Positions 853 through 50,361 of a stretch of DNA of 64,000 nt are shown here, one piece after another. Source of the stretch: Clostridia bacterium (GTDB lineage: Bacteria; Bacillota; Clostridia; Christensenellales; Aristaeellaceae); assembly GCA_017460395.1 (NCBI GenBank), contig JAFUBA010000007.1:7652-71651 (forward strand), read 5' to 3'. The position numbers and the translations under genes were made by a program. The notes under the pieces were generated by a model. It was not told where the DNA came from and made no database searches. It saw nothing but the letters and a program-made list of their open reading frames with translations. The first letter of the stretch is position 1, and each line of letters starts with the position of its first letter.

Positions 853-3800
853 ATGAGCACAAAGGAAAGCCCAAAGAAAAAACAGGCGACCTATCACCAC
901 AAGAGCTATCTGACATGGAAAACACTGCCCACAGTGCTCTTCACCATCTTCTGCGTGGCCCTCAACTGTCTCGGGCATCTTCTGGTCCATACGGTCGACT
1001 TTCTGCCCTTCAAGGCGGTCTGGTTCGACTCCCTTGGCACCATCTTCTGTGCCTATGTGACCGGTCCCCTCGGCGGTGCCATCGTGGGCGGAACCAGCAA
1101 CTTCATTTCCTCCATGTTTGATTTCAGCTCCGTGAACTATGCGCCCACCAGTATTGTCATCGGCATCGTGGTGGGTCTGATCTGCCGCAAAAGTCCCGTT
1201 GACCGCCTGCCCGGCATGATGCAGGCCGCCTTTGTGACGGCCATCGTCTCAGCCGCCGTCTCCACCCCCATCAATATGCTCACAAACGACGGGATGGTGG
1301 GCACCGTGGTCGGGGACGGTGTGATCGAGTTTTTTAAAGAGCTTGCTTTTCCTCAGCTTCTGTCCTGCTTCCTCGGGCAGCTCTACATGGATTTCGGCGA
1401 CAAGCTGATCACCCTCCTGATCCTCTACCTGTCCATTCATCTCTTTCGAATGATCGCCCCCCGTGTGCTGAAAAAGCGCAGGGGCACGGAGGAAGAAAAA
1501 CAGACTGCGGCAAGTGCGCCTGCAGACGGCCATCCGGCCGCGGCCACGGCCGCCGTGTCGGCACTCCTGGTCTGTCTTCTTGCCGTCCCCGCCCCGGCCC
1601 CGGCCGAGGGTACACAGGCAGACTACAATGACTACGTCCAGACCGTCTATTCCAGCCACAACGGCCTGCCCTGCGGGGAGGCCAACGACATCGCCATGAC
1701 CAATGACGGTGTACTCTGGATCGGCACCTATGCAGGTCTGTACCGCTACAACGGCAGGGAATTCCGCTGGGTGGACTACTATGACTCTGTGCGCAATGTC
1801 AACTGCCTGTATGTGGACCACGAGGGCAGACTGTGGATCGGCACCAACGACATGGGCCTGTCCATTGCAATCCGGGAAAACATTGTCAATGTCCTGGACT
1901 CCTCCACCGGCCTTCCCTCCGACTCTGTCAGGTCCATCATCGAGTCATCGGACGGATACTACTATGTGGGCACCACATCCGGTATGCAGATCCTGCAGAT
2001 GAACGACGGACTCAAGCGTCTGAGCACCCTCTCCGAGGTCCACTATGCGGACAATATCACAGCCGATGGGGATGGCCATGTGGCAGCCATCGCCTCTGAC
2101 GGGCGCATCTTCCTGATGCAGCGCGGCCGTATCCTCTCCTCCCTCCGTCTGCTCTCGGACACAGAGGTCTTCAACTGCTGCGCCTTCGATGAGGACGACC
2201 GCCTCCTTGTTGGCACTTCCTCCAACCATATCTATATCTACGATATCTCCGACGGTTCCTTCCGGGAGACGGAGGTCATCACCTGCGAGGGTGTCAGCAG
2301 CATCAACAACCTGAATTTCCTGGACGAGTCCACCATCTTTGTCTCCACAGACAGCGGGGTAGGATACCTCGATCAGGCGAAAACCTTCCATCCTGTCAAC
2401 ACCAATTCCTTCAACAACTCCATCGACAACATGATCGTGGACTACCAGGGGAATCTCTGGTTTACCTCCTCCCGGCTGGGTCTTCTGCGCCTTGCGCCTT
2501 CCGCCTTCCGGGATGTATACGGCACGATTGGCATGGACCGGCGCGTGGTCAACACCGTCGTCTTCTGGCAGGGCAGCTACCTCATCGGCACCGATAAGGG
2601 CCTGGACATCGTGGACGAGAGTTGCCGCCACCAGATCCGGAACGATCTGACCGAGCTTTTCCAGGGCCAGCGCATCCGCTGCATGATGGTCGATTCCTTT
2701 GATCACCTGTGGGTGTGCAGCTACAGTAACGGTCTGACCGAGATCGCCCCGGACCTCACCTCCTGGCACTATAACGCCGACAGCGGCTCCTTCGGCAACC
2801 GCGCGCGCATGGTGACCCAGCTCCGGGATGGCACGGTCCTGGCCGCCGGTGATACCGGCATCTCCTACATTTCGGATCATGAGATTCTCAAGACCATCCG
2901 ATACGAGGACGGGCTCATCAACTCCATGATCCTGACCCTCACCGAGATGGACGACGGCACGATCCTGGCAGGCACGGACGGGGACGGCATTGCCGTTTTG
3001 CGGGACCGGAAGGTCGAATCCATGCTGACCCGCGATGACGGTCTTCCCTCCGGCGTCATTCTCCGCACAGTCCTGGATCCCAAGGGAAACGGCGTCTTCG
3101 TGGTCACAAGCAACAGCCTGTGCTATCTTGAGCCTGACGGCACCATCCGGACCTTCGATGCGTTCCCCTATTTCAATAACTACGATGTCTTCCCCCGGGA
3201 CGAGAACACCCTCATGGTCATGAGCAGTGCCGGCATCTATGTGGTGGACCGGGATGAGCTGATGGCCGGCGGGGAAATCAGCTGGGAGCTTCTGGACGCA
3301 AAGAGCGGCCTGAACAGCGCGCTGACAGCCAATTCATGGAACTGGTGCAGCGAAAACGGGGATCTGTTCCTCCCCTGCGATACGGGTGTATACATCATCG
3401 ACACCCACAATTTTGACAGCTCCGCCCGCAACTACAGAATCTCCATGTCCGGCATCCGGCTGGACAATGAGGTTCAGCCGCTCCGGCGGACAGACAGCCT
3501 GACGGTGAGCAGGGATGTCAGCCGCATTGAGCTCTTCCCCGAGATCCTCAACTACACGATCCGCGACCCCATGGTCGCCTACATGCTGGATGGCTTTGAC
3601 GAGGACTGGACCACAGTCTCCCAGAGCGAACTGACCAGTGTGAGCTACACAAACCTCTCCGCCGGCACCTACACCTTCCGGCTGCGGGTGCTTGGGAATG
3701 ACGATGGCGGGGAGGACAGATATCTCGGCTCCCTCGACTATACCCTGGTCAAAAAGAGCGAGATCTACGACTCTCCGCTGTTTCTCTGGTACATCGTCAT

Positions 3801-4620
3801 CCTCATGATCCTCTTCTTTGTCTGGGGCTCCGGCATCTTCATGACCAAGCGGATCCAGAAGGCGGAGCAGAAGACACAGATGGAAAAGGCCAGACGGCGG
3901 GAAGCCGAGAAACAGGCACGCCAGGCCACCAACATCATTCTCTCCATCGCCACCCTTGTGGACGCAAAGGACGGCCTGACCAGCAACCACTCAAAGCGCG
4001 TGGCCAACTATTCCAGAATGCTGGGTGAAAAGCTGGGATTCTCTGAAAAGGAATGCAATAACCTGTTCAACGCGGCCCTTCTCCACGACATCGGCAAGGT
4101 CGGCATCCCCGACAGCATCCTGAACAAGGACTCGCGCCTGACGGACGAGGAGTACGCTACCATGAAGAGCCACGTCGTCACCGGCGGCAAGGTGCTGGCC
4201 AGCTTCGACATGATCCCCCACGTCATGGAGGGCGCGAAGTACCACCACGAGCGCTACGACGGCCGTGGGTATCCGGATCACCTCAAGGGCGAGGAGATCC
4301 CGGAGTATGGGCGGATCATCGGCGTGTGCGATGCCTTTGATGCCATGACAGCCAACCGCGTCTACCGCGGACAGATGGACTGGGACTATGTGCTCAGCGA
4401 GCTCAAAAAGGGCCGGGGCACACAGTTCGATCCCAACTTCGTGGACGCCTTCCTGGAGCTGATCGACGAGGGCAAGATCGACCTGAAAGGGATCTATCAG
4501 AACCACGGAGCCGATCTTGAAAAGTACACTCAGAAGACCTTTGAGGAAAACATCCGGCGGCAGAGGGAGACAGCCGTGATGCTTGCTACCGATGAGGAGA
4601 AGGGAGGCAGCAGAAAATGA
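853..4620 (+). CDS. Multidomain membrane receptor: polytopic N-terminal TM domain, beta-propeller (Reg_prop-like) repeats, Y_Y_Y-like domain, TM helix, HD-GYP phosphohydrolase domain
   Basis: HD motif LLHDIGKVGIPDSILNK and GYP motif HHERYDGRGYP lie at the C-terminus. Repeated WIGT/LWIGT/LWV propeller-like blades are present. A TM helix (LFLWYIVILMILFFVWGSGIF) precedes the HD-GYP domain, and the N-terminal 200 aa are hydrophobic. Confidence 0.8.
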   Translation: MSTKESPKKKQATYHHKSYLTWKTLPTVLFTIFCVALNCLGHLLVHTVDFLPFKAVWFDSLGTIFCAYVTGPLGGAIVGGTSNFISSMFDFSSVNYAPTSIVIGIVVGLICRKSPVDRLPGMMQAAFVTAIVSAAVSTPINMLTNDGMVGTVVGDGVIEFFKELAFPQLLSCFLGQLYMDFGDKLITLLILYLSIHLFRMIAPRVLKKRRGTEEEKQTAASAPADGHPAAATAAVSALLVCLLAVPAPAPAEGTQADYNDYVQTVYSSHNGLPCGEANDIAMTNDGVLWIGTYAGLYRYNGREFRWVDYYDSVRNVNCLYVDHEGRLWIGTNDMGLSIAIRENIVNVLDSSTGLPSDSVRSIIESSDGYYYVGTTSGMQILQMNDGLKRLSTLSEVHYADNITADGDGHVAAIASDGRIFLMQRGRILSSLRLLSDTEVFNCCAFDEDDRLLVGTSSNHIYIYDISDGSFRETEVITCEGVSSINNLNFLDESTIFVSTDSGVGYLDQAKTFHPVNTNSFNNSIDNMIVDYQGNLWFTSSRLGLLRLAPSAFRDVYGTIGMDRRVVNTVVFWQGSYLIGTDKGLDIVDESCRHQIRNDLTELFQGQRIRCMMVDSFDHLWVCSYSNGLTEIAPDLTSWHYNADSGSFGNRARMVTQLRDGTVLAAGDTGISYISDHEILKTIRYEDGLINSMILTLTEMDDGTILAGTDGDGIAVLRDRKVESMLTRDDGLPSGVILRTVLDPKGNGVFVVTSNSLCYLEPDGTIRTFDAFPYFNNYDVFPRDENTLMVMSSAGIYVVDRDELMAGGEISWELLDAKSGLNSALTANSWNWCSENGDLFLPCDTGVYIIDTHNFDSSARNYRISMSGIRLDNEVQPLRRTDSLTVSRDVSRIELFPEILNYTIRDPMVAYMLDGFDEDWTTVSQSELTSVSYTNLSAGTYTFRLRVLGNDDGGEDRYLGSLDYTLVKKSEIYDSPLFLWYIVILMILFFVWGSGIFMTKRIQKAEQKTQMEKARRREAEKQARQATNIILSIATLVDAKDGLTSNHSKRVANYSRMLGEKLGFSEKECNNLFNAALLHDIGKVGIPDSILNKDSRLTDEEYATMKSHVVTGGKVLASFDMIPHVMEGAKYHHERYDGRGYPDHLKGEEIPEYGRIIGVCDAFDAMTANRVYRGQMDWDYVLSELKKGRGTQFDPNFVDAFLELIDEGKIDLKGIYQNHGADLEKYTQKTFEENIRRQRETAVMLATDEEKGGSRK

Positions 4621-31815: not shown

Positions 31816-34800
31816 ATGGCAGATCAAACCGTAAACACCGCACAGGAGTCTGACTCCTGGCGTTCCCTATTTACCGAAAAGCAGCTGGAGACCGGAAAAA
31901 AGGCCTTTGAGGATGGACAGGTGGCGTATCTGACCCCCGAGGGAGAAAACTGTACCGCGCTGCTGGTCACGCCCTACGGCGGGCGCTATCATCTGGATTT
32001 GAGAAGTCCCCTCAAGGGAAGCACCTGGAAAAACACACCTCTTCGCTGCAACTGCAGAGAGAACCAGACTTCCCGTGCGACCAAATGGAACACGCGGGAC
32101 GGTGCCGTGACGCCAAAGCCATCCACATGGGTCAAGTGCGACCACATGGTGCCGGTCTTCTATGCATGGGAAGCACTGCATGGGCCTTGGGAAAACGGCA
32201 ATTCTGACGGCGACAAGACTGAAACAAAGAAGACTGCACCTGTCGGGAGTCCATCTCCCGCCGTGAAGCCCGTTTCCCGCGTCTCCCCGAAGCTTTCGCC
32301 TCTCTCGGCCCTTGAGGAAGCATGGCAGCAGGGCAGCCTTGAGACCATGCCGGTCCTGGATGTGCTCAATCACGCACCCACGACATGCCCCTCGTGGTGG
32401 GATGTGCGCAGTGCCATGTCCACTTTTTCCAAAAATCAGACCAACCGCTTCTTTGCGGACCGCCTCCCATTCCTCCTCCGGGTCGGTCCCACCAATCCAT
32501 TCACCTCTTCTGAGACACCGGACGGCTTAAGGAAACTGTCCTACCACCAGCTGTTTCGTTCCGATACAGGCGATGTGCGGGACGAGGGCACCGCAACGGT
32601 CACCATCATCGGGCGGCACATCCGCGACAGCAGCTGCACAGCACTCCGGTGCCGGACGCTGGGCATCATGTGTCACCACCAGATGGCCTGCTGGTCCTTC
32701 CTGTGGGACTGGGTCAACCGCCACCCCGTGGAGGATATGACGGACCCGGGTGTCGGGCAGATGATGGATCTTCTTTCCTGGAAACCCGTGGATACGGGCG
32801 AGATGAGCGTGGAATTCAAAAGCCACGCCCACGAAAAGCTCCCGTCCCTCTCCCTTACACCCCGTCTGCTCACAGACCGGACCCCTTTTCGCTTCGGCTT
32901 CCGGCTTGGACGCAGGTCCGGGCGGCAGATCATCCTCAAAAATCCCTATGAAATGCTGGTGGCAGAGCGAAACGGGGACCTGTATCAGCTGTCCAAGAAT
33001 GAGCTGGTAGACTTTGCCAGAGAGACCTTCATGCCCGAGTGCGAGGAGGATGTCAGACTCCTTCGGGACCGGGTGCTTCAGGAGGAAAACCAGCGGGACT
33101 ACCTCACCAACGACTCCACCTGGCGGCTGGAAAAAACCTGGGTGGACCGCTTCTATGACCTGCATGAGCACGAGTCCGTTGCCCAGGAAAACAGCCTGAA
33201 GTCTCTGACCACGCTGTCCCTGGACCACCACCCCTTTTCCGTATTGATCAAGGCCACGAAGGCCAAAGACATCATGGGGCAGATGATCGCCCTGGAGATC
33301 GCCTGTGTTCTGCCGCCCCGCATCCACGGAGCCATGAGCATCTATGCCTGGTCAAGCCAGTACATCTCCCGCATGACCCCCGATGAAATGAAGGTTGTGC
33401 GCGGGATTGAGTCTTTGATGCCCCAGAATGCCCGCCTTGTCCAGAGTGGTGAAACGCAGGTACGCTTCCGCCTCGGGCTTCCCGCGATCCCCCACTTCTT
33501 TGCCCATATTCTCCCGCGCATCCTGGAAGTGCCCGGGGTGACCTTCAAATGCGACTGCGAGGAAGAAATCCGGGCCATGCTGCCGCTGGAGCCTTCTTTC
33601 TCCTTCTATCTCGATCTCGTCGGTAAACAGCTGACCTGCCGCTGCAAGGTGGATTATGACGGTATCATCTTCTATCTGCCCCAGTCGGACGATACGGAGG
33701 TGGAATCAGCGGAGGGCATTGTCAGGGACAGGTATACGGAGAACCATACCCGCGAAGTCCTGAATGCCATTTTCCCGAACTATACGCCCACCAACCGTCT
33801 CTACTCCAGAAAGACCGACGACGCATCCCTCTTTCTCTTCCTCAGGAGCGGCTATCAGCGGCTGGAGAACATTGGACACGTGTATACAACCAAGGCCATC
33901 CAGAAGCTGAAGATGAGGAGTCTTTCGTCCATCAGTGTGGATGTCTCGGTCAACAGCGGTCTTCTGGATCTCTCCCTTCAGTCCTCGAACCTTTCCCAGG
34001 ACGAGCTGCTTGAAATCTGGGAGAGCTATGAAAAGCACCAGACGTTCTTCCGCCTGAAGTCCGGCGAGTTCGTGGACCTGACGGACGACGATGCCCTGCA
34101 CGACCTGTCCCTTTTCATGCAGAATCTGCACCTGCAGCCCAGGGATGTGCAGCATAAGCAGCTTCAGATCCCGATGTACCGGGCACTGTACCTGAGCAGC
34201 ATGCTCATGGACCGCGACGACCTCCTCTTCCAGAAGGACGGAGAATTCACCGCCTTCGTGGACCGCTTTGCGAGCGCCAGGGAGAAGGGATTCCCGGTGC
34301 CACAGGATTTTCAGAAAGTCCTGCGGCCATACCAGGAGGAGGGCTATGTATGGCTGCGCACGCTCTATGAATCCGGTCTCGGCGGTATTCTGGCCGACGA
34401 GATGGGCCTTGGCAAAACCGTCCAGATGATTGCGCTTCTGCGCGCCTGCCTCGACGAAAACCCGGACTTCACAGCCCTCATTATCTGCCCGGCATCTTTG
34501 GTATATAACTGGCTGGAGGAGCTGCACCGCTTCGCCCCCTCGATCCGCTGCTGCGTTGTGTCTGGTCAGGCAGCCCAGCGTCAGAGCATGCTCCAGCTCC
34601 TGGAGTACCGCATGCAGGAAGGCGGACAAAAGGACGAGGACTCCCCGGATGTCTATATCACCTCCTATAATCTGATGTCCCGCGATATATCGCTGTGGGA
34701 GCCGGTGGGCCTGGACCTGTGTGTGCTGGACGAGGCACAGTACATCAAAAACCTCAATGCCGGCGTCAGCAAGTCCGTGCGCCTCATCCGCGCATCCCAC

Positions 34801-35724
34801 CGCTTTGCCCTCACCGGTACGCCCATTGAAAACCGCCTGAGCGAACTGTGGTCCATCTTCGACTTCCTTATGCCCGGCTTCCTCTACAGCCAGGCAGAGT
34901 TCCGCAGCTATTTTGAGGAGCCCATCTCACACCTGGGTGATGCAGAGGCCACGGAGCGCCTGCGAAAGATGACGGGACCCTTCATCCTCAGGCGCCTCAA
35001 GCAGGACGTATTGCGCGATCTTCCGGAGAAGCTGGAGGAGGTGCGCTATGTCACGATGGAGGAAGACCAGCGGCGCATCTACGATGCCCAGGTCGCCCAC
35101 ACCATGTCTGTCCTGCGCATGCCGGACAGCAAAATGCAGACCTTCACGGAGCTCATGCGCCTGAGGCAGACCTGCTGCGATCCGTCTTTGTACCTTCGCG
35201 ACTATACCGGTTCCTCCGCCAAGCGTGCCGGGTGCCTGGACCTGATCCAGAGCGCCATGGACGGCGGTCACAGGATGCTGGTCTTCTCCCAGTTTACCTC
35301 CATGCTGGCGCTTCTGGAGAAAGACCTCGTTGAGCATGGCATTGAGTACTTTAAGATCACCGGCGAAACGCCGAAGGAAAAGCGGCTGGAGCTGGTCAGC
35401 CAGTTCAACCGCAGCGATGTTCCGGTCTTCCTCATCTCCCTCAAGGCGGGCGGCACCGGCCTGAACCTGACCGGTGCTGACATCGTCATCCACTATGACC
35501 CCTGGTGGAACCTGGCGGCTCAGAACCAGGCTACCGACCGTGCCCACCGCATCGGCCAGACCCGGCAGGTCGTGGTCTACCGCCTGATTGCCAAGGATAC
35601 CATCGAGGAGAAGATTCTCCAGCTACAGAACACCAAAAAGGACCTGGCAGATTCCATTCTCTCCGGCGATCATACATCGCTTCTGTCTCTGAGTCCGGAG
35701 GAACTGATGAGCCTTCTGTCCTGA
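31816..35724 (+). CDS. SWIM zinc-finger / SNF2-family helicase
   Basis: SWIM CxC...CxH (CNCRENQ...CDHMVP). SNF2 motifs LADEMGLGKTVQ, VLDEAQYIKN and DRAHRIGQTRQVVVYRL. Confidence 0.9.
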   Translation: MADQTVNTAQESDSWRSLFTEKQLETGKKAFEDGQVAYLTPEGENCTALLVTPYGGRYHLDLRSPLKGSTWKNTPLRCNCRENQTSRATKWNTRDGAVTPKPSTWVKCDHMVPVFYAWEALHGPWENGNSDGDKTETKKTAPVGSPSPAVKPVSRVSPKLSPLSALEEAWQQGSLETMPVLDVLNHAPTTCPSWWDVRSAMSTFSKNQTNRFFADRLPFLLRVGPTNPFTSSETPDGLRKLSYHQLFRSDTGDVRDEGTATVTIIGRHIRDSSCTALRCRTLGIMCHHQMACWSFLWDWVNRHPVEDMTDPGVGQMMDLLSWKPVDTGEMSVEFKSHAHEKLPSLSLTPRLLTDRTPFRFGFRLGRRSGRQIILKNPYEMLVAERNGDLYQLSKNELVDFARETFMPECEEDVRLLRDRVLQEENQRDYLTNDSTWRLEKTWVDRFYDLHEHESVAQENSLKSLTTLSLDHHPFSVLIKATKAKDIMGQMIALEIACVLPPRIHGAMSIYAWSSQYISRMTPDEMKVVRGIESLMPQNARLVQSGETQVRFRLGLPAIPHFFAHILPRILEVPGVTFKCDCEEEIRAMLPLEPSFSFYLDLVGKQLTCRCKVDYDGIIFYLPQSDDTEVESAEGIVRDRYTENHTREVLNAIFPNYTPTNRLYSRKTDDASLFLFLRSGYQRLENIGHVYTTKAIQKLKMRSLSSISVDVSVNSGLLDLSLQSSNLSQDELLEIWESYEKHQTFFRLKSGEFVDLTDDDALHDLSLFMQNLHLQPRDVQHKQLQIPMYRALYLSSMLMDRDDLLFQKDGEFTAFVDRFASAREKGFPVPQDFQKVLRPYQEEGYVWLRTLYESGLGGILADEMGLGKTVQMIALLRACLDENPDFTALIICPASLVYNWLEELHRFAPSIRCCVVSGQAAQRQSMLQLLEYRMQEGGQKDEDSPDVYITSYNLMSRDISLWEPVGLDLCVLDEAQYIKNLNAGVSKSVRLIRASHRFALTGTPIENRLSELWSIFDFLMPGFLYSQAEFRSYFEEPISHLGDAEATERLRKMTGPFILRRLKQDVLRDLPEKLEEVRYVTMEEDQRRIYDAQVAHTMSVLRMPDSKMQTFTELMRLRQTCCDPSLYLRDYTGSSAKRAGCLDLIQSAMDGGHRMLVFSQFTSMLALLEKDLVEHGIEYFKITGETPKEKRLELVSQFNRSDVPVFLISLKAGGTGLNLTGADIVIHYDPWWNLAAQNQATDRAHRIGQTRQVVVYRLIAKDTIEEKILQLQNTKKDLADSILSGDHTSLLSLSPEELMSLLS

Positions 35725-36996: not shown

Positions 36997-38712
36997 TCAG
37001 GAAATTCTTGCTATCCGTGCGCGTTTTTCACAGAAAGCCATAGCATATTGAAGACGCATTGTATAGCCTTCATAGATCAGTTGGCTTTCATATTTCATTC
37101 GAATTGCCTGACTGACTCCCTCCTGTAGTGCAGCTTCCATCTTTTCTTCGATCGTCTTTTCGTATGCCATGTCCTTCACTTTGGCACCTTCTTTTTTCAG
37201 GTGTTTGAGTTCCAGAATCAAGCTCCTGTTCCGCGCCATATCCAGGATGATCAGATCACTTCTGCCGTAACCTGTCTCCCTCTCTGACTGGACACGATAG
37301 CCCATACCCGTAAAAAAGCCATCCAGAATCAGGTGATAGCTGTATTCATGGTACTCGTGGTAAAAAGACAAGGTCGCTTCCAAAATCTGATTCATGGCTT
37401 TCTGCGCCATCTCAGTTTGTCCAGCCCAGAGAGCATTAACCAGATCTCCTACAAAAACATTGTCTACTTTGTCTTTGAAATACGACCACACTTCCATTTG
37501 GAATGCTTTTTGAATCGATCTGTTGGGAATGCGTAGTGGCATGCGTAATGGTCTTCCCTCGACTGCCCTGGTAAGGTACCCTGTCTCAACGAGTGCAGAC
37601 CAAAGATTTTCTCCTCTATCATGGATTCGATGATAAGGCACACATTCATCGACAACGCATTCAATGGTACCGCCGGCAAGAAGCTGCTCAAACCGTTCAT
37701 TTACATCCGTTGTTTTCCCAAGAAATCCATGAATAAGATCCTGAGCGGATTCCGATGTGCCAACCCAATAGCTCTCCGGTCCTCTGTATTCATCATAGCT
37801 GCCACTCAGCTTTGCCTGTACAAACGACAACACATCCCATGGACAATACATCCTCTGCCGCCCAAAGATATACCCATCATACCATTCCTTAACCGTATCG
37901 TAGAGATCAGATAAGTCCGCATCCTTCAGAAGTTTCCTGACATCCTCATCCGTAAAACCGATGTATGACGCATACAAAGGAGAAAAAACAGAGTATGAAA
38001 TGATGTTATTGACGCCAGTATATGTACTGTTTTTCACTGTATACAGGCAACCGGACAGAATCACACCCTGTATATTGCTGTTCGTTTTGCAGACATGGCT
38101 GAGCATACGCTCAACCATATCTCTGACTTGTTCATAGTGAGATGTATCAAGAGCTTTTGCCATAGGAACGTCATATTCATCAATTATAACAAATACTGGC
38201 TTGCCAAAATGCTTTTTCAGCATATCGCCTATGATCTCCAATGCACGCTCCATCGTGGCCTGATTTCCTTCTTGCTTCCACAGCGTCTCAAAAAGAGCTT
38301 TGCTGACATCACTCACCTTCGTGCTGCTCATAAGAAACGAATTGTCTTCACACAGTTTGGAAATGGTACCAGCGAAATTCTGTAGAACCTTGTCAAAATC
38401 ATCCCCAGTGACTGCTTTCATCGAAATGAACATCACCGGATACTGATTCATGTACTTACTTACTACATCCGGATAGTCCATGATTTTCAACCCTTCGAAG
38501 ATGTCTTTGCTGTCTTGAAGGATATCCAGAAAATCCCGGAACATCGTCATGGTCATCGTTTTTCCAAACCTGCGGGGCCTCGTGAACAGAACAGCTTTTT
38601 CAAACCACTTGTCAAGATATTCTACGATCAAATCTGTCTTGTCCACATAATAGGCACCATTTTCTCGAAGCTGTCGGAATGAATCATCTGATTTCATTAT
38701 ATGGACTTTCAT
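36997..38712 (-). CDS. AAA-ATPase_like plus PD-(D/E)XK (PDDEXK_9-type) protein, full length
   Basis: YYVDKTDLIVEYL and RPRRFGKTMTMTMF in the N-terminal part. The C-terminal nuclease motif is intact: GYGRSDLIILD...LILELKH. AT-rich relative to flanks. AAGGAG lies 6 nt upstream. Confidence 0.8.
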   Translation of the reverse strand: MKVHIMKSDDSFRQLRENGAYYVDKTDLIVEYLDKWFEKAVLFTRPRRFGKTMTMTMFRDFLDILQDSKDIFEGLKIMDYPDVVSKYMNQYPVMFISMKAVTGDDFDKVLQNFAGTISKLCEDNSFLMSSTKVSDVSKALFETLWKQEGNQATMERALEIIGDMLKKHFGKPVFVIIDEYDVPMAKALDTSHYEQVRDMVERMLSHVCKTNSNIQGVILSGCLYTVKNSTYTGVNNIISYSVFSPLYASYIGFTDEDVRKLLKDADLSDLYDTVKEWYDGYIFGRQRMYCPWDVLSFVQAKLSGSYDEYRGPESYWVGTSESAQDLIHGFLGKTTDVNERFEQLLAGGTIECVVDECVPYHRIHDRGENLWSALVETGYLTRAVEGRPLRMPLRIPNRSIQKAFQMEVWSYFKDKVDNVFVGDLVNALWAGQTEMAQKAMNQILEATLSFYHEYHEYSYHLILDGFFTGMGYRVQSERETGYGRSDLIILDMARNRSLILELKHLKKEGAKVKDMAYEKTIEEKMEAALQEGVSQAIRMKYESQLIYEGYTMRLQYAMAFCEKRARIARIS

Positions 38713-40743: not shown

Positions 40744-41021
40744 GTGTGTTGCCTCCTTCAAGTTTGCTTTTATTTCCTTCGCTTCGCGATTCACGTGCGT
40801 AATACGGCAGCACCTCCATGGAACCATGGTACAGGCCTTTGCGTCTGATGGCGTGAACTTCCAAACGTCTCAGCCATACCCTCCATGGCCATTCGGTGAT
40901 ACCGGTACTGCTGATCTGTCTCAGCAAATACCGTCAGAACACTCTGCAGATTCTCTGACTTCTCGGGGTCCAGATCCAGTACAGGATCCCGATGAACCGG
41001 CAGCCCCGCGGCGCCGCGCTG

Positions 41022-43234
41022 CTTTAGACGCTAATTTCCAGGAAAATTACAGTAATTAACTAATTAATTCTTTGAAAAAACCGGGATAAGTGCTAAACGC
41101 CTCATAGATCAGTAGCTGTTTATATCACGGAATCGTAGTCGCGGATGTGTGATGTGAGCCCATTTTGGGACCGGGTTTCTGACGGAGGGTTCCGTCCTTG
41201 TTGAATATTCCCTTTTTGCTGCCGGGCTTGGGTCCAGGTCTTTGACGCTTGCTTCCGTCCATGTTTGTGTCAGCGCGCTTGAATCCGGGCTTTGGCCCGG
41301 GTTTTCCGCGCAGCTTTGGCACTGGTTCCGGCACTGTGTCTGTCGAGCGTGTCATGGTTTTCTGCTTAGGCTTAGGACCCGGCTTCTTTTTGACAAGCTT
41401 TGGCACATAACCGTTCATTCTCTTGTTAACGTCGGCTACGATGTCATCCAGATACTCTTTCTTTTTTCCTAATTGCGTAAACATTTGTAGCTGTTTAGCC
41501 TTCTCAGTGTGAGTATAATAGAACACCTTGTTTACCCGAAGCATGGTCATCAGATTCAGTTCCCTGAAATATGATGTAGCAGCCATCTGTATTTTATCCG
41601 CGCCCTGTTCCATATGGTAACGTATAATAGAGCTGATAAAACCCAGACAATATTTCGACCTTGTGCCTGCGTCAAAATGCACATGTGCTCCAGTGCCATA
41701 GCCCAGCTGTGTTTTGACAAAGGAATACTGTTTCTCTGAGACGTTCCTTGAGGAGTAACGCTGGTGCACTTCATATGGGGTCAGATCTTGCGAATGCGCT
41801 ATACCATAGATGCCCGTATCATCAATATGCTTCTGGATTTCTGTAGTATTAACGCATACTGCATTCGTTTCAGGATCAATATTCAACACATGCTTGAAGA
41901 CATCACTGACTACCGCCTTCGTGTCCTTCTCAAGAAGTGCTTCAAGTCGATCAATCTCTGCGTATACTTTGTCCAGGTAATGGCCCAGTCTTTCAGCACC
42001 ATTCAAAAAATCATAGAAGATCGTGACATGGTCTTGCTTTGCATACTTTCCGAACAGTTGAACATCTTTCTGTGCGGCGTAAAGATGGGTCTTCTTTACA
42101 AGATGTTTGGCATCATTCTTAATCGCGTTTTTCTGCTCATCTGCAACCTCCTTATAGCCTGCAGGCTCTCCTTTGATCATGATGACATACTCAATCTTGT
42201 GTTCATTAAGGTACTCAATAGCGTTTGTATCACAATATCCTCTATCAAGAATGACACCTTCGACTTCGATTTTACATTGTTCAAGAAAGTCAATGATATC
42301 TTTCATTGCTTTTGCATCGACTAATCCTCCACGATACAAGTTGAATGTGACTGGATAACCATCAACACTGACAGCATAGGTAAAACTAATAATATTTGTG
42401 TTCTTCTTCGATTTTGCTTTCCCTTTTTCGGCTATCTCAACACCTTTGCACTTGCAGTCTTCATTGGAACCATCAATGCACAACCATACTTTGCTCATCC
42501 CGTTTGCCTTGCAGTGCAATGCCCATTGCTTCTTGAACAGTATTATTTCGTCATTGCTGATCCCTTTTTCAAAGAGGTTCGAATATGTTGAATCACTGTA
42601 CAATTTTCCAGAAAAAAGGACCTGATCGCTCATACGGCTTTCATACTGCGAGGTAATATCAGACTGAAAAAGGATCGAATACATGGCATAATCCAGCAGC
42701 TTATCTGTCTTCTTACTGCCAAATGCATCTTCCATCACCTTCCGAAGCTGGCATTCTTCCACAATGACCTTCGTAGCTGCGTACATGCCAAATCGAAGCT
42801 CTATAGGCTTGATAGCACTATGCCCATATTTCTTTACCCATTCGTCTTTGAACAGTTCCAGATAGTTATCATTGGGAGTCATTTTCGTCTGATCAGTGGG
42901 ATCAAGATAACCGATCAGAACAGGATTATTTCCGTTACACGAATAGAACACGGTACCGGTTTGCTGGGCTTCAGTGGCAGCTCTTCTGAAGATGCCAGGT
43001 AGCTCTGGAACATCAACTCGCTTGTCAGGATAAGCAGCCATAATTAATTAGTTCACATCCTTTTTGTCGGAAAAATGCCGACTGTAGTTTACAGTGGCGA
43101 TTATACACCATCTAATTAATTATGGCAAGGGGTGAAAATGCTTATATTACAAGGCTTTTCGAGGTTTCTACATGCAACGAAAAGTCAATTAATCAATTAG
43201 TTACTGTAATTTTTCCAGAAAATAGCGTTTAGAG
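41022..43234 (-). mobile_element. IS4-family insertion sequence (about 2.2 kb), apparently intact
   Basis: Imperfect terminal inverted repeats of about 48 bp (roughly 39 matches by manual alignment; shared core AAAATTACAGTAA), a single transposase ORF, and strikingly AT-rich sequence relative to flanks. No target-site duplication could be identified, and the ends are uncertain by a few bp. Confidence 0.85.
41125..43041 (-). CDS. DDE transposase, IS4 family (IS1634-like)
   Basis: Candidate DDE residues lie in LCIDGSNED, VILDRGYCD and the exact Y-x2-R-x3-E-x6-K signature YSSRNVSEKQYSFVK. The C-terminal tail carries four (K/R)PGPKP(G/K) repeats. Confidence 0.85.
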   Translation of the reverse strand: MAAYPDKRVDVPELPGIFRRAATEAQQTGTVFYSCNGNNPVLIGYLDPTDQTKMTPNDNYLELFKDEWVKKYGHSAIKPIELRFGMYAATKVIVEECQLRKVMEDAFGSKKTDKLLDYAMYSILFQSDITSQYESRMSDQVLFSGKLYSDSTYSNLFEKGISNDEIILFKKQWALHCKANGMSKVWLCIDGSNEDCKCKGVEIAEKGKAKSKKNTNIISFTYAVSVDGYPVTFNLYRGGLVDAKAMKDIIDFLEQCKIEVEGVILDRGYCDTNAIEYLNEHKIEYVIMIKGEPAGYKEVADEQKNAIKNDAKHLVKKTHLYAAQKDVQLFGKYAKQDHVTIFYDFLNGAERLGHYLDKVYAEIDRLEALLEKDTKAVVSDVFKHVLNIDPETNAVCVNTTEIQKHIDDTGIYGIAHSQDLTPYEVHQRYSSRNVSEKQYSFVKTQLGYGTGAHVHFDAGTRSKYCLGFISSIIRYHMEQGADKIQMAATSYFRELNLMTMLRVNKVFYYTHTEKAKQLQMFTQLGKKKEYLDDIVADVNKRMNGYVPKLVKKKPGPKPKQKTMTRSTDTVPEPVPKLRGKPGPKPGFKRADTNMDGSKRQRPGPKPGSKKGIFNKDGTLRQKPGPKMGSHHTSATTIP

Positions 43235-43471
43235 ATGCCCGGTTCATCTCTCCCCTGCTCATCCATTGAGGGTGCATATAAGCGAACAGGCCACAGATGG
43301 CGTTCTGTCGACAGGTTCCCGCCCTGAAGTGCCTGTGAGTAACGTTTTTCCTGATGTACCCGTATCTTAGCCGGACGCTTTCCTGACGTCAAGCTCGCTG
43401 CTGTTCTGCATATGTCCTGTGATGTATAATGATTCCATCATCCATGTCGATTGCACATAAGGAGGCATAGC

Positions 43472-44689: not shown

Positions 44690-45409
44690 TTACGATTCCT
44701 GAAAGTCCCTGCAGATCGCATCGTAGTACTTGCCTGTGTACATGGAGTAGTCCGCCTCATTGCACTTCGCCGGCTTTTTTCCGCAGGGTTTTCCGAAGGA
44801 ATAGCGGGTGCCCCAGGCATTCCCTTTGCTGATGTTCCTGATGGCCATGCAGTACTCGCTGGACCAGGAAAACTCGCCCTTTCGCACGACCACCACGGGA
44901 CCCGGCATGAGCTTTGCATATTTGCTGTACAGGTTCTCGATGGTCGTCACTTCCTCATAGTCCACCCCAGCCACCGGTGTGAATTCGCCGGTCTTTGCCG
45001 CCTGATTCCTCGGCGGCTTATTCTGTTCTTCCTTCAGATCATGCACCTGCTTCTGCACATGGTCCACCTTGCCCTCGAAGTATTCGAGGGCACCGGAGAT
45101 GTTCTGGTAGGCCGTGACGGCGCCCTGGAAGCTCTCTTCCAGTCGCTGCATCTCCTCCAGAATCGCCTCGTGCCGCCGGATGTCCTCCTGCAGGTTTGCC
45201 CGCTCCGCGCGAAGCTCATTGAGCTGCCCTTCCGCACGGCTCACCAGGTCTTCCAGTTCCTCCGCCCGCTGACAGATTCTCTCATACAGTGCCATCTGCC
45301 CCTGCCCGGCCTCCTGAAGAACGCTGACACTTTTGTGCATCTCCATGACCTGGCGGGCGAACTCGGCATCCTGATTGAGCAGATCGTAGACATTGGCAAT
45401 ATTATCCAT
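44690..45409 (-). CDS. Coiled-coil protein with an unrecognised Cys-containing C-terminal domain
   Basis: The N-terminal 130 aa are heptad-like and charged (AEELEDLVSRAEGQLNELRAERANLQEDIRRHEAILEEMQRLEE). The C-terminal 100 aa (VVVRKGEFSWSSEYCMAIRNISKGNAWGTRYSFGKPCGKKPAKCNEADY...AICRD) match no family I recognise. The start overlaps the upstream stop (ATGGATAA). Confidence 0.6.
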   Translation of the reverse strand: MDNIANVYDLLNQDAEFARQVMEMHKSVSVLQEAGQGQMALYERICQRAEELEDLVSRAEGQLNELRAERANLQEDIRRHEAILEEMQRLEESFQGAVTAYQNISGALEYFEGKVDHVQKQVHDLKEEQNKPPRNQAAKTGEFTPVAGVDYEEVTTIENLYSKYAKLMPGPVVVVRKGEFSWSSEYCMAIRNISKGNAWGTRYSFGKPCGKKPAKCNEADYSMYTGKYYDAICRDFQES

Positions 45410-46271
45410 TCTGTGCTTCCCCCATCTCTGTCACGAATTCCCGTACGCCCGCAGCATGGCGCATGGCACACGCCCGGCACCTGAGTGCAAGGTGATACAT
45501 CACCAGATAAATCTCGCTCCAGTGAAACTGGCCATAGATGCGGCTCACCAGCATGCTCAGCTGTACAGAGCTCATATTCAGCATATCATCCAGCGCCTCG
45601 TCATCCGTCAGAAGGGCATACAGTACCCGTACATCCGAATCTACGGGCAGAACCTCAAGACAGGAGGTGACATCAAAGTCCGGGTGATCCAGGAAATGGA
45701 GCACGGCATATTTTGCCCGCATCTCGCTGTCTTCCTCCGCATCCATAAGTGCAGGATAGTCCTTCTGCACAGTCTCCTCGCCCTCGTCCCAGGTTTCGTA
45801 TGTCTCCTCCCAGGGCTCGAAGAACGGCACTGTCAGGGGAACGTAGAAGACCTGCTGTTCAAAGCAGACAAACAGGTCATGGAGGAGCCGAAGGTGGCTC
45901 AGCGCCATCTCTCCGCTGGCCGTCCTGTTCATGTCGTGGGAGGACTGATTGCCGCCGGACCGCCTGGCATCATCCAGATGCTTCACCAGCATTCCGTCCC
46001 CTACCGCCTTGCGAAATCCGACATAGCTCAGAAGCTCCGCATAACTGCACATACCGGTCGGCTTTCCGCCCAGGTGCTCCGGCAGCTCAAAGAGAGGTGC
46101 TTTATAGAAAAGCCGCACCAGGGTTTCCGTGCATGCCCTGCACTTGGCCACGGCGGAGGTGTAGTGCCCTTCCATGTAAAGACGCTCCGCTTCCGTGCAG
46201 TTATCCGCAAAGCCCGGCGTGTATACTTCCCCGCGCGTTTCATCGTACATGAAGACGAAATTACCAGACAA
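45402..46271 (-). CDS. DUF4145-domain protein with an acidic C-terminal extension
   Basis: HYTSAVAKCRACTETLVRL ... LVKHLDDARRSGGNQSSHD fits the DUF4145 pattern, including R-x2-G-N-x3-H. TTG start with GAGGTG about 10 nt upstream. The C-terminal 160 aa are unassigned. Confidence 0.6.
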   Translation of the reverse strand: MSGNFVFMYDETRGEVYTPGFADNCTEAERLYMEGHYTSAVAKCRACTETLVRLFYKAPLFELPEHLGGKPTGMCSYAELLSYVGFRKAVGDGMLVKHLDDARRSGGNQSSHDMNRTASGEMALSHLRLLHDLFVCFEQQVFYVPLTVPFFEPWEETYETWDEGEETVQKDYPALMDAEEDSEMRAKYAVLHFLDHPDFDVTSCLEVLPVDSDVRVLYALLTDDEALDDMLNMSSVQLSMLVSRIYGQFHWSEIYLVMYHLALRCRACAMRHAAGVREFVTEMGEAQNG

Positions 46272-46317
46272 GTGCTTTTCTCACCTCGTTTTCCAGGCAG
46301 ATTGACCGCCTCTTTCG

Positions 46318-47544
46318 TCACCTGCTGCTCCAGCGCAGGTTGTCTATGAGGGATTCCCTGCTGACCATGTCAAGATACCTGGCAAATACATTCTCGCCTT
46401 TTTCCTGCCAGAGTGCCCAGCCGGGATCCTGTTTCCAGGAAGGGTCATCCGAGCGGAAGGTGCCGGAAAAATAGGCGAGATTGAATCGGGCCGAAAGATC
46501 CAGCATCTGTTCCCGCTCCTCCTCCGGGATTGACGGGTCCATAGACTTCCTGTTTTTGTCCTTTGTAATCTCGCAGAACCACCTGGCGCTCTCCTCCTGA
46601 AAGCCCTCCGGCAGATGCTCCGCGCAAAGGGCCCTTGCCTCGTAGTCGATACTTCCGTCATCCCGGATCTCGATCATGGCAAAGCGGTGCGGTGACACGG
46701 AAAAGGCACCGGTTGCGGCATCGGTCACGCCGTCCTGCTCCATCAGATGCTGAATATGAAGATGGCCGCTCACATGCAGCTGCACACCGGCGCGGCGAAG
46801 CGTTTCAAGGCAGGTTTCCCAGCCGAACATCTGAAAGCTCTCCCGGGCAAAGGAGCTTTGCGCCACCAGACTGTGATGACTCCCCGTGATCACGGTCCGC
46901 CCCTCCGACGCGGCCTCCTTCAGCATCTCCCGCACCTGCACATCATGGCTGCTCATGTAGACCCCAAAGGTCTGCCCCATGGGCTCATAGAAGGACACAT
47001 CCATGAGCACGAGCGCCACACGGTCCCCCACCGGCACCATGTACGTGAAACCTGCCTCGTCCTGAAGGTCACAGTCCCCGAGAAACTCCAGGTAAATCTC
47101 CTGGAACCCATCTGCATTCAGATTGGGCGCCGGATACCATGCGTCCCCCTCAAATCTTCTGGTTGAGGGGCTGTTGATGTCGTGGTTCCCCGGGATCACC
47201 CACACGTTTGTCCCCGTCTCCGCCTCGATCCTCCTCAGCCAGCCCTTTAGCCACAGATGACTGGCCTTTTCCCCGTTGAAGGTCAGGTCCCCGGTCAGTA
47301 CCAGTGCATCGGGCTTCTGGTGCTTTACCTCCTCCAGCAGGCCCTGCATCAGCTCCTCACTGTGCTGGGTATACTTACCGTCCCCCGCGCGCAGCGCCTG
47401 GATGAACAGATCACTGCCTTCAAACAGCTCCGGCGCCAGGACATGGGTGTCTGAAATGACCATGATGCGCGTGTCGGCCATGGCACATTTCAGAGGCACA
47501 AGTGCAAGGAGGAAAAAGGCTATCATGTATAAGATTCGTTTCAT
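46318..47544 (-). CDS. Calcineurin-like metallophosphoesterase with an N-terminal signal/anchor
   Basis: Motifs VISDTHV, LTGDLTFNG, IPGNHD and VSGHLHIQH. N-terminus is MKRILYMIAFFLLALVPLKCAMA. Confidence 0.8.
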   Translation of the reverse strand: MKRILYMIAFFLLALVPLKCAMADTRIMVISDTHVLAPELFEGSDLFIQALRAGDGKYTQHSEELMQGLLEEVKHQKPDALVLTGDLTFNGEKASHLWLKGWLRRIEAETGTNVWVIPGNHDINSPSTRRFEGDAWYPAPNLNADGFQEIYLEFLGDCDLQDEAGFTYMVPVGDRVALVLMDVSFYEPMGQTFGVYMSSHDVQVREMLKEAASEGRTVITGSHHSLVAQSSFARESFQMFGWETCLETLRRAGVQLHVSGHLHIQHLMEQDGVTDAATGAFSVSPHRFAMIEIRDDGSIDYEARALCAEHLPEGFQEESARWFCEITKDKNRKSMDPSIPEEEREQMLDLSARFNLAYFSGTFRSDDPSWKQDPGWALWQEKGENVFARYLDMVSRESLIDNLRWSSR

Positions 47545-47617: not shown

Positions 47618-49318
47618 TCATTCTTCTACTTCCCACTCTGTCAGCATTCTCGACTTCGAATCAAAGGCTACGCCGATCCTGTATAGCTTTCTGGTATCCA
47701 CCCGAAAGGGAAGAACAGATTGTTTTTCCTCTATTTTCTCAGGTGCTTCCTCTGCCGTGCCATCCATCCTGAACCCGAACACATATGCGTATTCCCGAGT
47801 TTTGACCTTGCAGCCGATATACCCGGAAAACGTGTGCAGCTCACACTCAAGAAACCTGCCAAGCAGCGTGAATACAAGAAATATCACCATCCGCATGCAG
47901 TGGTCAAGGGGTATTCCTCCCGGCACGATACAGGCTACCATGCCCGTCAGTACATCCCGGATGCCCTCCAGATTTCCGCGTCCCATGTGCTCATCCAGCG
48001 TGAAAATATCCAGCCCGTTTGCAGCATTTGCATTTGGGGTATACGCGGACAGCAGGCTTTCGAGAAAGGCGTATTTCACCTCTTCGCATGGAAAACCGAG
48101 CGCGTATCTGTCCCGATCGTGGTCGTAACCTGCAATCGTCAGGTACCCTGTCTGATACAACAGAGGTACTGGATCCGCCGCATCGCACGTCGTACTCTTC
48201 AACGTGCGCTCATCTGCATACAGCGTCCCCTCGGTCAGCCTCTGTACATCAAAATCAGTTTCTCGGAGCTTCCTGATCAGAAGATCCGGCGTGCCCGTCC
48301 CGAACCAGTAGGAACCAAAACTCTTTGAGAAGAAGCATTTCAGGACGCTGAACGGATTGTAAACGCTTTGAGAGCACGGTGCAAAGTGATAGCCGTCGTA
48401 CCACTTTTTCATCTTCTCCAGGCCTTCTTCCCGCCCAAGATGCTGCCTGTTGCAGAGCGCATCAATTTCCTCTCCAAAGACGGTTCTGATTTCTGCATCC
48501 GTCAGGCCGCAGACACAGGCATACTCCTCATCCAGGGATATATCGCCCGGCAGGTCCAGATCATTGCATCTGCTCACACCGGTCACAAAGCTGAACCGGA
48601 TACTGTCAGAGCAGCTTTTGAGCACACCAAAAAAATCGCTCAGAACATCCCTGTTGTGTTCCTGCATCTCCCTGTGATCCATGTCCTCCAGGAGTGGTTT
48701 GTCATACTCATCCACAAGGATGACACATGGAAGACCGGTGGTGTCCCCTGCTCTGATCAAAAGATTCCGGAATCTCGCACCGAGAGAGCTTTGCGCGCCA
48801 TCCAGCGCATACGCCTTCTCCCACTTTTCAAGGAGGAAGGTCAGCCTGCGTTCAAGCGCACCTTTTTCCTGATAGTTCTCGCCATTGAAGTCAAAACTGA
48901 ACACGGGATATGCTTTCCATGCATTACACTTGTCCTCTTCCAGCTTTTCAATGGCAAGACCTGAGAAAAGCTCTTTCCTGCCCTCCCAGTAGGCCTTCAG
49001 GGTGGAGAGCAGCAGGCTCTTTCCAAATCTCCTTGGCCTTGAGAGAAAACACGATGCATTGTGATGAACCAGATGATAGACATATTCTGTCTTATCTACA
49101 TAAAGAAAGCCGTCTGTCCTGATCTTCTCAAAGCTCTGTATCCCAACCGGGATTTTCCTGGCCGCCACGCCGTCTCCTTTCCGGTCTTGCACCAGAAGGT
49201 CACCTGAAGCAGGCTTCAGTATCCCGAACATGCCGTGCCGCAGGAAATCTGTTGATCCGGGCCAGTGCCTTCTGGCAGGTTGATCCAAAGTCATCTGCTG
49301 ATCCGTGATACGCACCAC
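47618..49318 (-). CDS. AAA-ATPase_like plus PD-(D/E)XK-like protein (nuclease motif apparently degenerate)
   Basis: PVGIQSFEKIRTDGFLYVDKTEYVY and RPRRFGKSLLLSTL. The C-terminal region aligns by eye to the paralog's nuclease domain, but with SGYIG in place of GRSD and FGFRM in place of LELKH. The start is uncertain (GTG 49318, ATG 49294 or ATG 49231). Confidence 0.7.
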   Translation of the reverse strand: MVRITDQQMTLDQPARRHWPGSTDFLRHGMFGILKPASGDLLVQDRKGDGVAARKIPVGIQSFEKIRTDGFLYVDKTEYVYHLVHHNASCFLSRPRRFGKSLLLSTLKAYWEGRKELFSGLAIEKLEEDKCNAWKAYPVFSFDFNGENYQEKGALERRLTFLLEKWEKAYALDGAQSSLGARFRNLLIRAGDTTGLPCVILVDEYDKPLLEDMDHREMQEHNRDVLSDFFGVLKSCSDSIRFSFVTGVSRCNDLDLPGDISLDEEYACVCGLTDAEIRTVFGEEIDALCNRQHLGREEGLEKMKKWYDGYHFAPCSQSVYNPFSVLKCFFSKSFGSYWFGTGTPDLLIRKLRETDFDVQRLTEGTLYADERTLKSTTCDAADPVPLLYQTGYLTIAGYDHDRDRYALGFPCEEVKYAFLESLLSAYTPNANAANGLDIFTLDEHMGRGNLEGIRDVLTGMVACIVPGGIPLDHCMRMVIFLVFTLLGRFLECELHTFSGYIGCKVKTREYAYVFGFRMDGTAEEAPEKIEEKQSVLPFRVDTRKLYRIGVAFDSKSRMLTEWEVEE

Positions 49319-49608: not shown

Positions 49609-50361
49609 CTATCTTCTTTCGTCTCCGAAGCCGGCCTTTTTCATTTCCTGTTCCAGGAACGGGGTCAGAAGGGCATCGTTGGCGGCATAGGCCGCACGGT
49701 AGTACAGTATGCAGCTCAGAACTGCCACCAGAAACATCCAGAAGGACATCTCATAGAAGCCGCGCATCAGGTACTGTACCACGAAGCTCATGGACACAAA
49801 CAGGATGAGACCTGTGCGCCTGGAGATCCTGTAGAGCATCATCACCGCGGCACGGCAGTTTCTCTCCTGCATCATCTCCTTTTCCAGGCTGCTGTCCTGA
49901 TCAGGCCGGATGTGCAGAAGGGAGAGAGCCACCTTGCAGTAGCGGTCCCAGAGCCGATAGCGGAAGGATGTTCTGACAGCGGTCAGCCACTCATGAAAGA
50001 GCACGAGCAGTACCGCACCGATCCCCACTGCCGCCATGGCGTCCGCGGACGGGTTCTCAAAGAGCCCGAAGACCAATACCTCAAAGAGGATGATCAGCAG
50101 CGGCATAAAAAGATATCTCGGAATGGTCATGGCAGAGAGCCTGCCAAGCTCCCGGTTCAGATGCTGCGGCAGGGCCTCCTCGGCCTTTGTCTCTGCCGCC
50201 TCTGCCAGAGTAAACTCCTGCCCGCCCAGCAGCTCTCTGTGAATCTGCCTGCTCTTTTCCCGGCAGACGTTCCGCAGGCGTTCGGAGGCAAAAAGGTCCT
50301 CCAGATGCTCGATCTCCCGGATCGCATAGTCCTTGCCAATTTCTCGCGTTTCGATCTTCAC
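49609..50361 (-). CDS. Membrane protein of unknown function
   Basis: Soluble N-terminal 75 aa followed by about five hydrophobic helices. Starts 46 nt downstream of the MBL gene on the same strand. Confidence 0.5.
   Translation of the reverse strand: MKIETREIGKDYAIREIEHLEDLFASERLRNVCREKSRQIHRELLGGQEFTLAEAAETKAEEALPQHLNRELGRLSAMTIPRYLFMPLLIILFEVLVFGLFENPSADAMAAVGIGAVLLVLFHEWLTAVRTSFRYRLWDRYCKVALSLLHIRPDQDSSLEKEMMQERNCRAAVMMLYRISRRTGLILFVSMSFVVQYLMRGFYEMSFWMFLVAVLSCILYYRAAYAANDALLTPFLEQEMKKAGFGDERR

Follow-up and report, generated by a model that had tools for sequence, protein, structure and literature searches.

The RNase site of HEPN domains is a composite one and is formed by dimers. Among RNases of the HEPN class, PrrC and RloC are thought to serve as a back-up when restriction is inhibited, and RloC has a long coiled coil. 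The demonstration that DUF4145-type HEPN domains act as defence RNases is recent and comes from RAZR (PMC13017515), BxaP and Ishtar (bioRxiv 10.64898/2026.07.06.735840), and the question at stake for each of them is how the RNase is silenced and switched on. RAZR (PD-T7-4; Nature 2026, PMC13017515) consists of one polypeptide, with a Cys4 zinc ribbon at the N-terminus and the HEPN domain at the C-terminus; it cleaves single-stranded RNA, its RNase stays silent until higher-order assembly, in the manner of abortive infection, and the substitutions R146A and H154A abolish defence. BxaP (ORF376) is reported to have an N-terminal DUF4145 and a helical C-terminal domain, is rare, lies in BREX or type I restriction-modification loci and shows an abortive-infection phenotype, and the defence-associated anti-plasmid proteins Ishtar1/2 combine an N-terminal HEPN domain (DUF4145 or DUF3644) with a beta/alpha domain. 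Restriction-linked DUF4145 genes as a class are already known, since Anantharaman et al. 2013 (PMC3710099) had described DUF4145 genes within restriction-modification operons. Many type I restriction enzymes also carry a DUF4145 module N-terminally. Here, two overlapping minus-strand genes (gene 1 and gene 2, together the cassette) are described from a 64,000-nucleotide (nt) stretch of contig JAFUBA010000007.1, which is called the window and in which all cassette positions are counted. The cassette is a member of no described system. We give a probability of about 0.5 to the reading that it encodes an RNase module of two proteins, built on DUF4145-HEPN and belonging to the abortive-infection or toxin type; gene 2 would scaffold and sense, and gene 1 would cut RNA once triggered. 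New here are the obligate partner and two domain families without known relatives, one being the helical, acidic part of gene 1 and the other the domain that ends gene 2. By splitting the job over two obligately paired proteins, the cassette could show a different control of a HEPN nuclease, and it may help to explain the DUF4145 module of the type I restriction enzymes; its extreme rarity (eight loci) limits its general importance. The cassette is laid out as follows:

45402..46271, minus strand: gene 1, open reading frame (ORF) of 289 amino acids (aa), stop codon included in the coordinates, TTG start, acidic with an isoelectric point (pI) of 4.7; predicted effector
44690..45409, minus strand: gene 2, ORF of 239 aa, stop codon included in the coordinates; partner protein
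46282..46287, minus strand: GAGGTG, Shine-Dalgarno-like sequence 10 nt upstream of the TTG of gene 1, read from the sequence
45402..45409, minus strand: ATGGATAA, 8-nt overlap of the gene 2 start and the gene 1 stop, read from the sequence as translational coupling

The two minus-strand genes, their coordinates, the TTG start, the GAGGTG and the 8-nt overlap had been given in a preliminary description of this DNA, and all were found as given there. The overlap ATGGATAA contains both the start ATG of gene 2 (45409-45407) and the stop TAA of gene 1 (45404-45402). The length of the ORFs was no proof of the cassette genes, since this DNA, with 56% G+C content (GC), also has a spurious antisense ORF of 318 aa over the same stretch, at 45393-46349. 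The genes were taken as real because homologues with conserved motifs were found in seven other loci, with identities to the window copy of 25-30% for the gene 1 homologues and 25-49% for those of gene 2, where a truncated copy gave the lowest value. The public record is a gut or rumen Clostridia metagenome-assembled genome, in which both genes (locus tags IJ083_00435 and IJ083_00430) are annotated as "hypothetical". Its gene 1 begins at the ATG of M8 and has 282 aa; this start is seven codons too late and drops N4/F5. The TTG at 46271 was accepted as the real start because N4/F5 are invariant in the gene 1 family and because of the upstream GAGGTG. An NF pair was present within the first 12 residues in 125 of 145 profile matches, and the gene 1 homologue of locus L011 has a TTG start too, after GGAGGAGG.

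Eight distinct loci were obtained (the window, L001, L003, L006, L007, L009, L010 and L011), several of them on contigs shorter than 5 kb. The protein search with gene 2 returned four homologues at 42-46% local (BLASTP) identity, corresponding to 42-49% in a MAFFT alignment, and at each of their loci a gene of 284-289 aa was located immediately upstream, overlapping gene 2 and encoding a protein 25-30% identical to gene 1 over its full length. One locus came from a roe-deer rumen Clostridia genome and three more from a search of representatives; three further gene 2 homologues were located beside gene 1 homologues. Whether the pair is conserved as neighbours had been proposed earlier as a check, and gene 1 and gene 2 were found side by side in all eight loci; on this strict adjacency the pair is obligate. 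An 8-nt junction overlap of the form ATGNNTRA was present in five loci (the window, L001, L003, L007 and L009; ATGAGTGA or ATGAATGA outside the window), L006 had an 11-nt overlap, and L010 and L011 had gaps of 14 and 3 nt, respectively, giving an overlap of 8-11 nt in six of the eight loci. The pairwise-identity matrices of gene 1 and gene 2 were correlated (r = 0.79). Because the pairing is strict and the stop codon of gene 1 overlaps the start codon of gene 2, we argue that the two products probably form a stoichiometric complex. The window copy was the most divergent member of the family, and in a set of 1.84 billion representatives the full-length gene 1 family made up only six clusters at E<=1e-30. 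A single new locus was gained from pattern scans of genomes and metagenomes, and no relatives of gene 2 were found by tblastn against phages and plasmids or in a viral-contig scan. No gene 2-like partner was present in the contexts of the nearest outgroup DUF4145 proteins (P0016, P0019 and P0020).

A compact overlapping two-gene layout that is kept in every locus would also suit a toxin-antitoxin (addiction) pair, in which a HEPN toxin encoded by gene 1 is constitutively neutralised by a labile gene 2 antitoxin and the pair stabilises the restriction or defence island, or whatever locus, that carries it, with no phage sensing. HEPN toxins are classic components of such pairs, as in the HEPN-MNT pairs (PMC3710099) and in AbiV with its RNA antitoxin, and in the window and L011 the cassette was found without defence genes beside it. 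However, no nucleotidyltransferase, DNA-binding, known antitoxin or other enzymatic domain was detected in gene 2 in the family scans, and a HEPN-MNT system was ruled out by the lack of the nucleotidyltransferase. Furthermore, gene 2 was called the larger and the more strongly conserved of the two, its identity to the window copy being 42-49% compared with 25-30% for the putative toxin; toxin-antitoxin pairs usually show the reverse. The searches gave no homologue on plasmids or phages. An addiction pair is thus considered unlikely, although it keeps some weight.

The features of gene 1 are:

45843..46271, minus strand: residues 1-143, the N-terminal domain, with a HEPN fold of divergent DUF4145 type and an NFxF motif at its N-terminus, from profile, hhalign and Foldseek comparisons
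45936..45962, minus strand: R104-S-G-G107-N108-Q-S-S-H112, predicted catalytic RxxGNxxxH motif, from its invariance in the family
45762..45842, minus strand: acidic linker, residues 144-170, pI 4.05, with invariant P145 and E152-P153 (FFEP motif); predicted local distance difference test (pLDDT) of the model below 50
45405..45761, minus strand: C-terminal domain, residues 171-289, all-helical, acidic (pI 4.4) and family-specific

Gene 1 had been assigned to DUF4145 by eye. This assignment was confirmed by the family profile and by hhalign, and it needs the family profile because the window protein alone gives no direct Pfam match. Three gene 1 homologues scored 19.0-20.5 bits against PF13643, over profile positions 7-86 of 88, just below the gathering score of 23.1 bits. 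The search with the gene 1 family profile returned 146 proteins, and those outside the family were matched nearly all via profile positions ~4-135, mostly at their own N-terminus. Pfam and PADLOC domains were scanned in 112 of these matches, and motif counts were made on 145. PF13643 was present in 96 of the 112 scanned proteins (best E 5.6e-17), the PADLOC labels PDC-M16A-like and REase_I were given to 96 and 74, respectively, and N-terminal fusions to type I HsdR, recognised by HSDR_N, ResIII or EcoEI_R_C, accounted for 15-19. The hhalign comparison of the gene 1 family with 27 standalone DUF4145 proteins gave a probability of 99.7% and an E of 1.4e-26 over residues 3-152. Judged from these sequence comparisons, the N-terminal domain of gene 1 is a true, though divergent, HEPN domain of the DUF4145 type and belongs to the sub-type that is usual at the N-terminus of HsdR. 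Neither cassette gene matched a housekeeping complex or a described defence system in the Pfam, NCBIfam and PADLOC scans. The profile placement that had been proposed as a check fell inside DUF4145/HEPN, and the proposal of an undescribed conflict system was supported as far as computation goes.

The signature RSGGNQSSH that had been pointed out in gene 1 was found at residues 104-112. R104, G107, N108 and H112 were invariant in all eight family members, and R..GN...H was present in 105 of the 145 profile matches. Gene 1 is argued to be an enzyme because these catalytic-type residues are invariant. An AlphaFold model of gene 1, built from three sequences only, had a pLDDT of 71.9. Its top Foldseek matches in PDB were HEPN domains (2hsb, 1o3u, 1ufb, sacsin HEPN and AbiV), with weak E-values, in agreement with the HEPN-like fold suspected earlier; the 2hsb match, with a template modelling (TM) score of 0.76 on the target and a probability of 1.00 but an E of 0.46, was of moderate strength. 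The whole gene 1 family profile gave no match to PDB sequences, and nothing meaningful was found when the model was searched against a viral structure library.

Acidic sequence had been described after the N-terminal domain of gene 1, and it was found after residue 143, in both the linker and the C-terminal domain. The FFEP motif of the linker was also found after DUF4145 in P0019 (L012 1012-1969), which is the frameshifted N-terminus of an HsdR, and this sequence likeness suggests that the N-terminal module and linker of gene 1 share ancestry with the HsdR fusions. The C-terminal domain was modelled as helices over residues 172-287, with pLDDT above 90 over residues 170-230, and its conserved positions were D171, K187, A189, L191, L208, L217, L221, Y246, E253 and R266. 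This domain had no match in Pfam, in PDB sequences or by Foldseek, and in the profile search it was confined to the six full-length clusters and a few fragments. The possibility that gene 1 is a truncated HsdR was rejected, since no member of the family had an HSDR_N or ResIII match, the C-terminal 120 aa are conserved, and the protein is full length in six representative clusters.

The features of gene 2 are:

45020..45409, minus strand: residues 1-130, helical coiled-coil region, pI 4.6, with model helices 2-33 and 38-129
45137..45160, minus strand: L84-E-E-M-Q-R-L-E91, conserved block in the coiled coil, L84-L90 invariant in eight of eight sequences, the most distant included
44693..44968, minus strand: C-terminal domain, residues 148-239, about 92 aa, alpha/beta and aromatic-rich, from alignment and model

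Gene 2 had been described as a coiled coil followed by a Cys-containing domain. The two modelled helices followed by a small alpha/beta domain bore out this architecture, while the emphasis on cysteine did not hold, as C187 alone was conserved; a zinc-binding role for the cysteines is for this reason unlikely. The coiled-coil model had a pLDDT of 72-92 over residues 41-120. The LEEMQRLE block sits in an unusually conserved stretch of gene 2, residues 80-111, and is a putative interface that resembles a binding site more than a spacer. In the C-terminal domain, 38 columns were invariant among six sequences, including the aromatic residues W182, Y186, W199, Y203, Y221 and Y224, and the motifs VDYEEVT, GPVVVVR, W..(E/D)YCMAI, AWG.RYS.G and YS.Y.G were recognised. 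Searches of gene 2 against Pfam, NCBIfam and PADLOC gave only weak coiled-coil noise (SMC, Rad50, JetC, LmuB and ZorA), which was not taken as homology. The C-terminal domain matched nothing in Pfam, and its family profile had no match among PDB sequences; a defensin match at E 2.7 in the PDB-sequence profile search was regarded as chance. Foldseek returned only coiled-coil and designed helical proteins for gene 2, a result that is uninformative for the C-terminal domain, which was modelled at a pLDDT of about 50.

Like RAZR, gene 1 has a DUF4145-type HEPN domain, and its R104 and H112 are 8 residues apart, as are R146 and H154 of the RAZR catalytic pair; a dependence of RNase activity on R and H has been shown for RAZR only. 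An RNase that is silent until it assembles would be a further feature in common. In RAZR the HEPN domain is C-terminal, whereas in the cassette it is N-terminal, with no zinc-ribbon match, another helical C-terminal domain and an obligatory second protein. The PADLOC model PD-T7-4 was not matched by the window protein; one family member matched weakly over the motif region (E 0.0072), and two of the 112 scanned relatives matched. BxaP resembles gene 1 in domain order, rarity and neighbourhood, but its motif is of the Rx4H type (RCLYGH), and BxaP works from one gene, without a coiled-coil partner. Homology to BxaP was rejected, as hhalign of the family profile gave a probability of 0.3% against the BxaP sequence from the supplement, used without its tail. 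The Ishtar proteins, compared by description only, are single polypeptides, while the beta/alpha domain of the cassette is on a separate coiled-coil protein.

The closest relatives of the gene 1 N-terminal domain were the N-terminal DUF4145 modules of type I HsdR and the PADLOC candidate PDC-M16A, which share NFxFL, RxxGNxxxH and sometimes FFEP. The L001 homologue matched PDC-M16A at 7.4e-8, over positions 1-169 of 930, while the window protein had no PDC-M16A match. These proteins have 900-1170 aa with nuclease and helicase domains, in contrast to gene 1, which is a standalone protein of 289 aa with its own conserved C-terminal domain. PrrC and RloC are HEPN-class RNases in or beside a type I restriction operon, as is known in general and from the HEPN survey (PMC3710099), and the cassette may be comparable to them. 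Both carry, on the same polypeptide, an N-terminal domain resembling an ABC ATPase, which the cassette lacks, and there is no sequence relationship; the restriction link of the cassette was found in only three of eight loci (L001, L007 and L010) and not in the window.

In these three loci a restriction enzyme gene lies directly before the pair, at a spacing of 35-116 nt. The order in L007 was hsdM, hsdS, integrase, hsdS, hsdR, gene 1 and gene 2, all co-oriented except the first hsdS, with 35 nt between hsdR and gene 1. In L001 the pair was preceded by a DEAD/MZB helicase gene and, directly, by hsdR, and was followed by a GmrSD/HEC-05 gene. In L010 it came directly after a type IIL/ISP restriction-methylase gene, whose product is related to 7lo5 and LlaBIII. 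In L003-L006 the pair was located after the gene of a DUF4357/RAMA protein matching PADLOC PDC-S14, and in L011 after a two-component regulator, while the surroundings of L009 were uninformative. Altogether, five of the eight loci had a restriction or defence neighbourhood, and a defence or toxin function of the cassette is proposed from this association.

The restriction neighbours and the HsdR relatives of the N-terminal domain (15-19 of 112 with HsdR domains, 74 of 112 labelled REase_I) would also be consistent with a detached restriction-enzyme accessory, in which gene 1 and its coiled-coil partner dock on or regulate a restriction complex (assembly, alleviation or localisation) and gene 1 is not a nuclease on its own. 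The FFEP linker common to gene 1 and an HsdR N-terminus points in the same direction. The invariant R, N and H, which are of catalytic type, instead favour an enzymatic role; the partner enzymes are of different types (type I and type IIL/ISP), and no restriction enzyme gene adjoins the pair in the window, in L011 or in L003-L006. Such an accessory role appears quite improbable.

Two of these neighbourhoods showed further features. The type I restriction-modification operon of L007 (556-9131), immediately upstream of the cassette homologue, has a tyrosine integrase between its two hsdS genes and forms a phase-variable specificity shufflon. In L003 (2872-4555; also L004, 2998-4051) the cassette is followed by a second gene pair (217 aa and 345 aa) with an 8-nt overlap, which may be another putative defence pair; the 345-aa protein had a weak PADLOC JukB match (1.4e-7).

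Under the two-protein RNase reading, gene 1 would be the effector, and its HEPN domain, with an intact RxxGNxxxH, would pair with a second copy to form the RNase active site. The acidic helical C-terminal domain of gene 1, which is specific to this family, may serve in regulation or docking. As its start codon overlaps the stop codon of gene 1, gene 2 would be made in a fixed proportion to gene 1, and its coiled coil, which includes the LEEMQRLE block, would bind the gene 1 protomers and set their position, or hold them apart. The aromatic-rich C-terminal domain of gene 2 is the candidate sensor. Upon a trigger the complex would become an active RNase and cut tRNA, rRNA or mRNA, and growth would stop. 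Candidate triggers are a phage or plasmid component and the loss or inhibition of a neighbouring restriction enzyme, as with PrrC. In a more specific form, the cassette would be a guard module, in which the C-terminal domain of gene 2 monitors a restriction enzyme or a phage structure and then assembles the DUF4145 protomers into active RNase dimers or higher assemblies; this would be RAZR-like scaffold-driven activation split over two proteins, and we consider this version doubtful.

Several observations weigh against the two-protein RNase reading. When searched directly against Pfam, NCBIfam and PADLOC, the window gene 1 protein matched nothing, with no DUF4145 match at E<=1, and the loop carrying its catalytic motif was modelled at a pLDDT below 50. 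The cassette lies away from restriction or defence genes in the window, in L011 and possibly in L009, and with eight loci, several of them on short contigs, the neighbourhood statistics are thin. Furthermore, the gene 1 family is acidic throughout, with a pI of 4.5-4.8, which is unusual for an RNA-binding nuclease; AbiV, in contrast, uses a large basic patch.

The same family-wide acidity, with the acidic linker, and the insertion sequence (IS) beside the cassette in the window could be accommodated by an anti-restriction or counter-defence pair on a mobile element, with the very acidic gene 1 product as a nucleic-acid mimic or decoy. No homologue was found in the phage, plasmid and viral-contig collections or, as a meaningful match, in the viral structure library. 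In the homologous loci the cassette is co-oriented inside host restriction operons, and in the window its GC is close to that of the host backbone and it lies outside the inverted repeats of the IS. A counter-defence pair is on these grounds highly improbable.

The neighbours of the cassette in the window were a convergent BNR_2 protein gene, a metallophosphoesterase gene, an AAA-ATPase_like+PDDEXK_9 gene, an IS (DDE_Tnp_1) and sugar-metabolism genes (fucose isomerase, GH2 and CutC). The preliminary description had taken the IS, the PDDEXK ATPase and the phosphoesterase to fit an accessory or defence islet. All three are present, but at the homologous loci none of them recurs, and in the window the cassette has no restriction-modification gene on either side. 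The window neighbours are considered not to be part of the system because they do not recur, a functional link to the phosphoesterase or to the AAA-PDDEXK gene was rejected for the same reason, and the window context gives little support for a defence islet. The host-like base composition noted earlier was found again, as the GC of the cassette (0.555-0.573) is near that of the backbone (0.59-0.61) and unlike that of the IS (0.41-0.46).

The IS (41014-43242) encodes a DDE_Tnp_1 transposase of 638 aa (41125-43041, minus strand) and is bounded by imperfect inverted repeats of 56 nt (41014-41069 and 43187-43242) that are 79% complementary. Carriage of the cassette by this IS was rejected, as the cassette is outside the repeats. 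The metallophosphoesterase gene (46318-47544) encodes a protein with a CNP_C_terminal domain and an N-terminus that is signal- or lipoprotein-like by eye (MKRILYMIAFFLLALVPLKCAMA). The gene stops 46 nt short of gene 1, and no convincing promoter or terminator was predicted between the two genes; co-transcription is possible.

Further observations were made in the rest of the window, in which Rfam and tRNA scans were empty. Two paralogous AAA-ATPase_like + PDDEXK_9 genes are encoded on the minus strand, at 36997-38712 and 47618-49318, and the first of them, AT-rich with a GC of 0.43-0.48, seems to be a recent acquisition. A minus-strand ORF of 250 aa (49609-50361), located between the PDDEXK ATPase gene and an MBL-fold/Ada zinc-binding gene, looks by eye like a membrane protein and has no Pfam family. 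The region 31816-35724 encodes a SNF2-family helicase of 1302 aa, in which residues ~800-1300 matched 1z63 and INO80-type ATPases and the N-terminal ~800 aa had no solved-structure match in the search. A sensor of 1255 aa, encoded at 853-4620, combines a hybrid two-component-type periplasmic sensor region with a C-terminal HD-GYP-type cyclic-dinucleotide phosphodiesterase domain.

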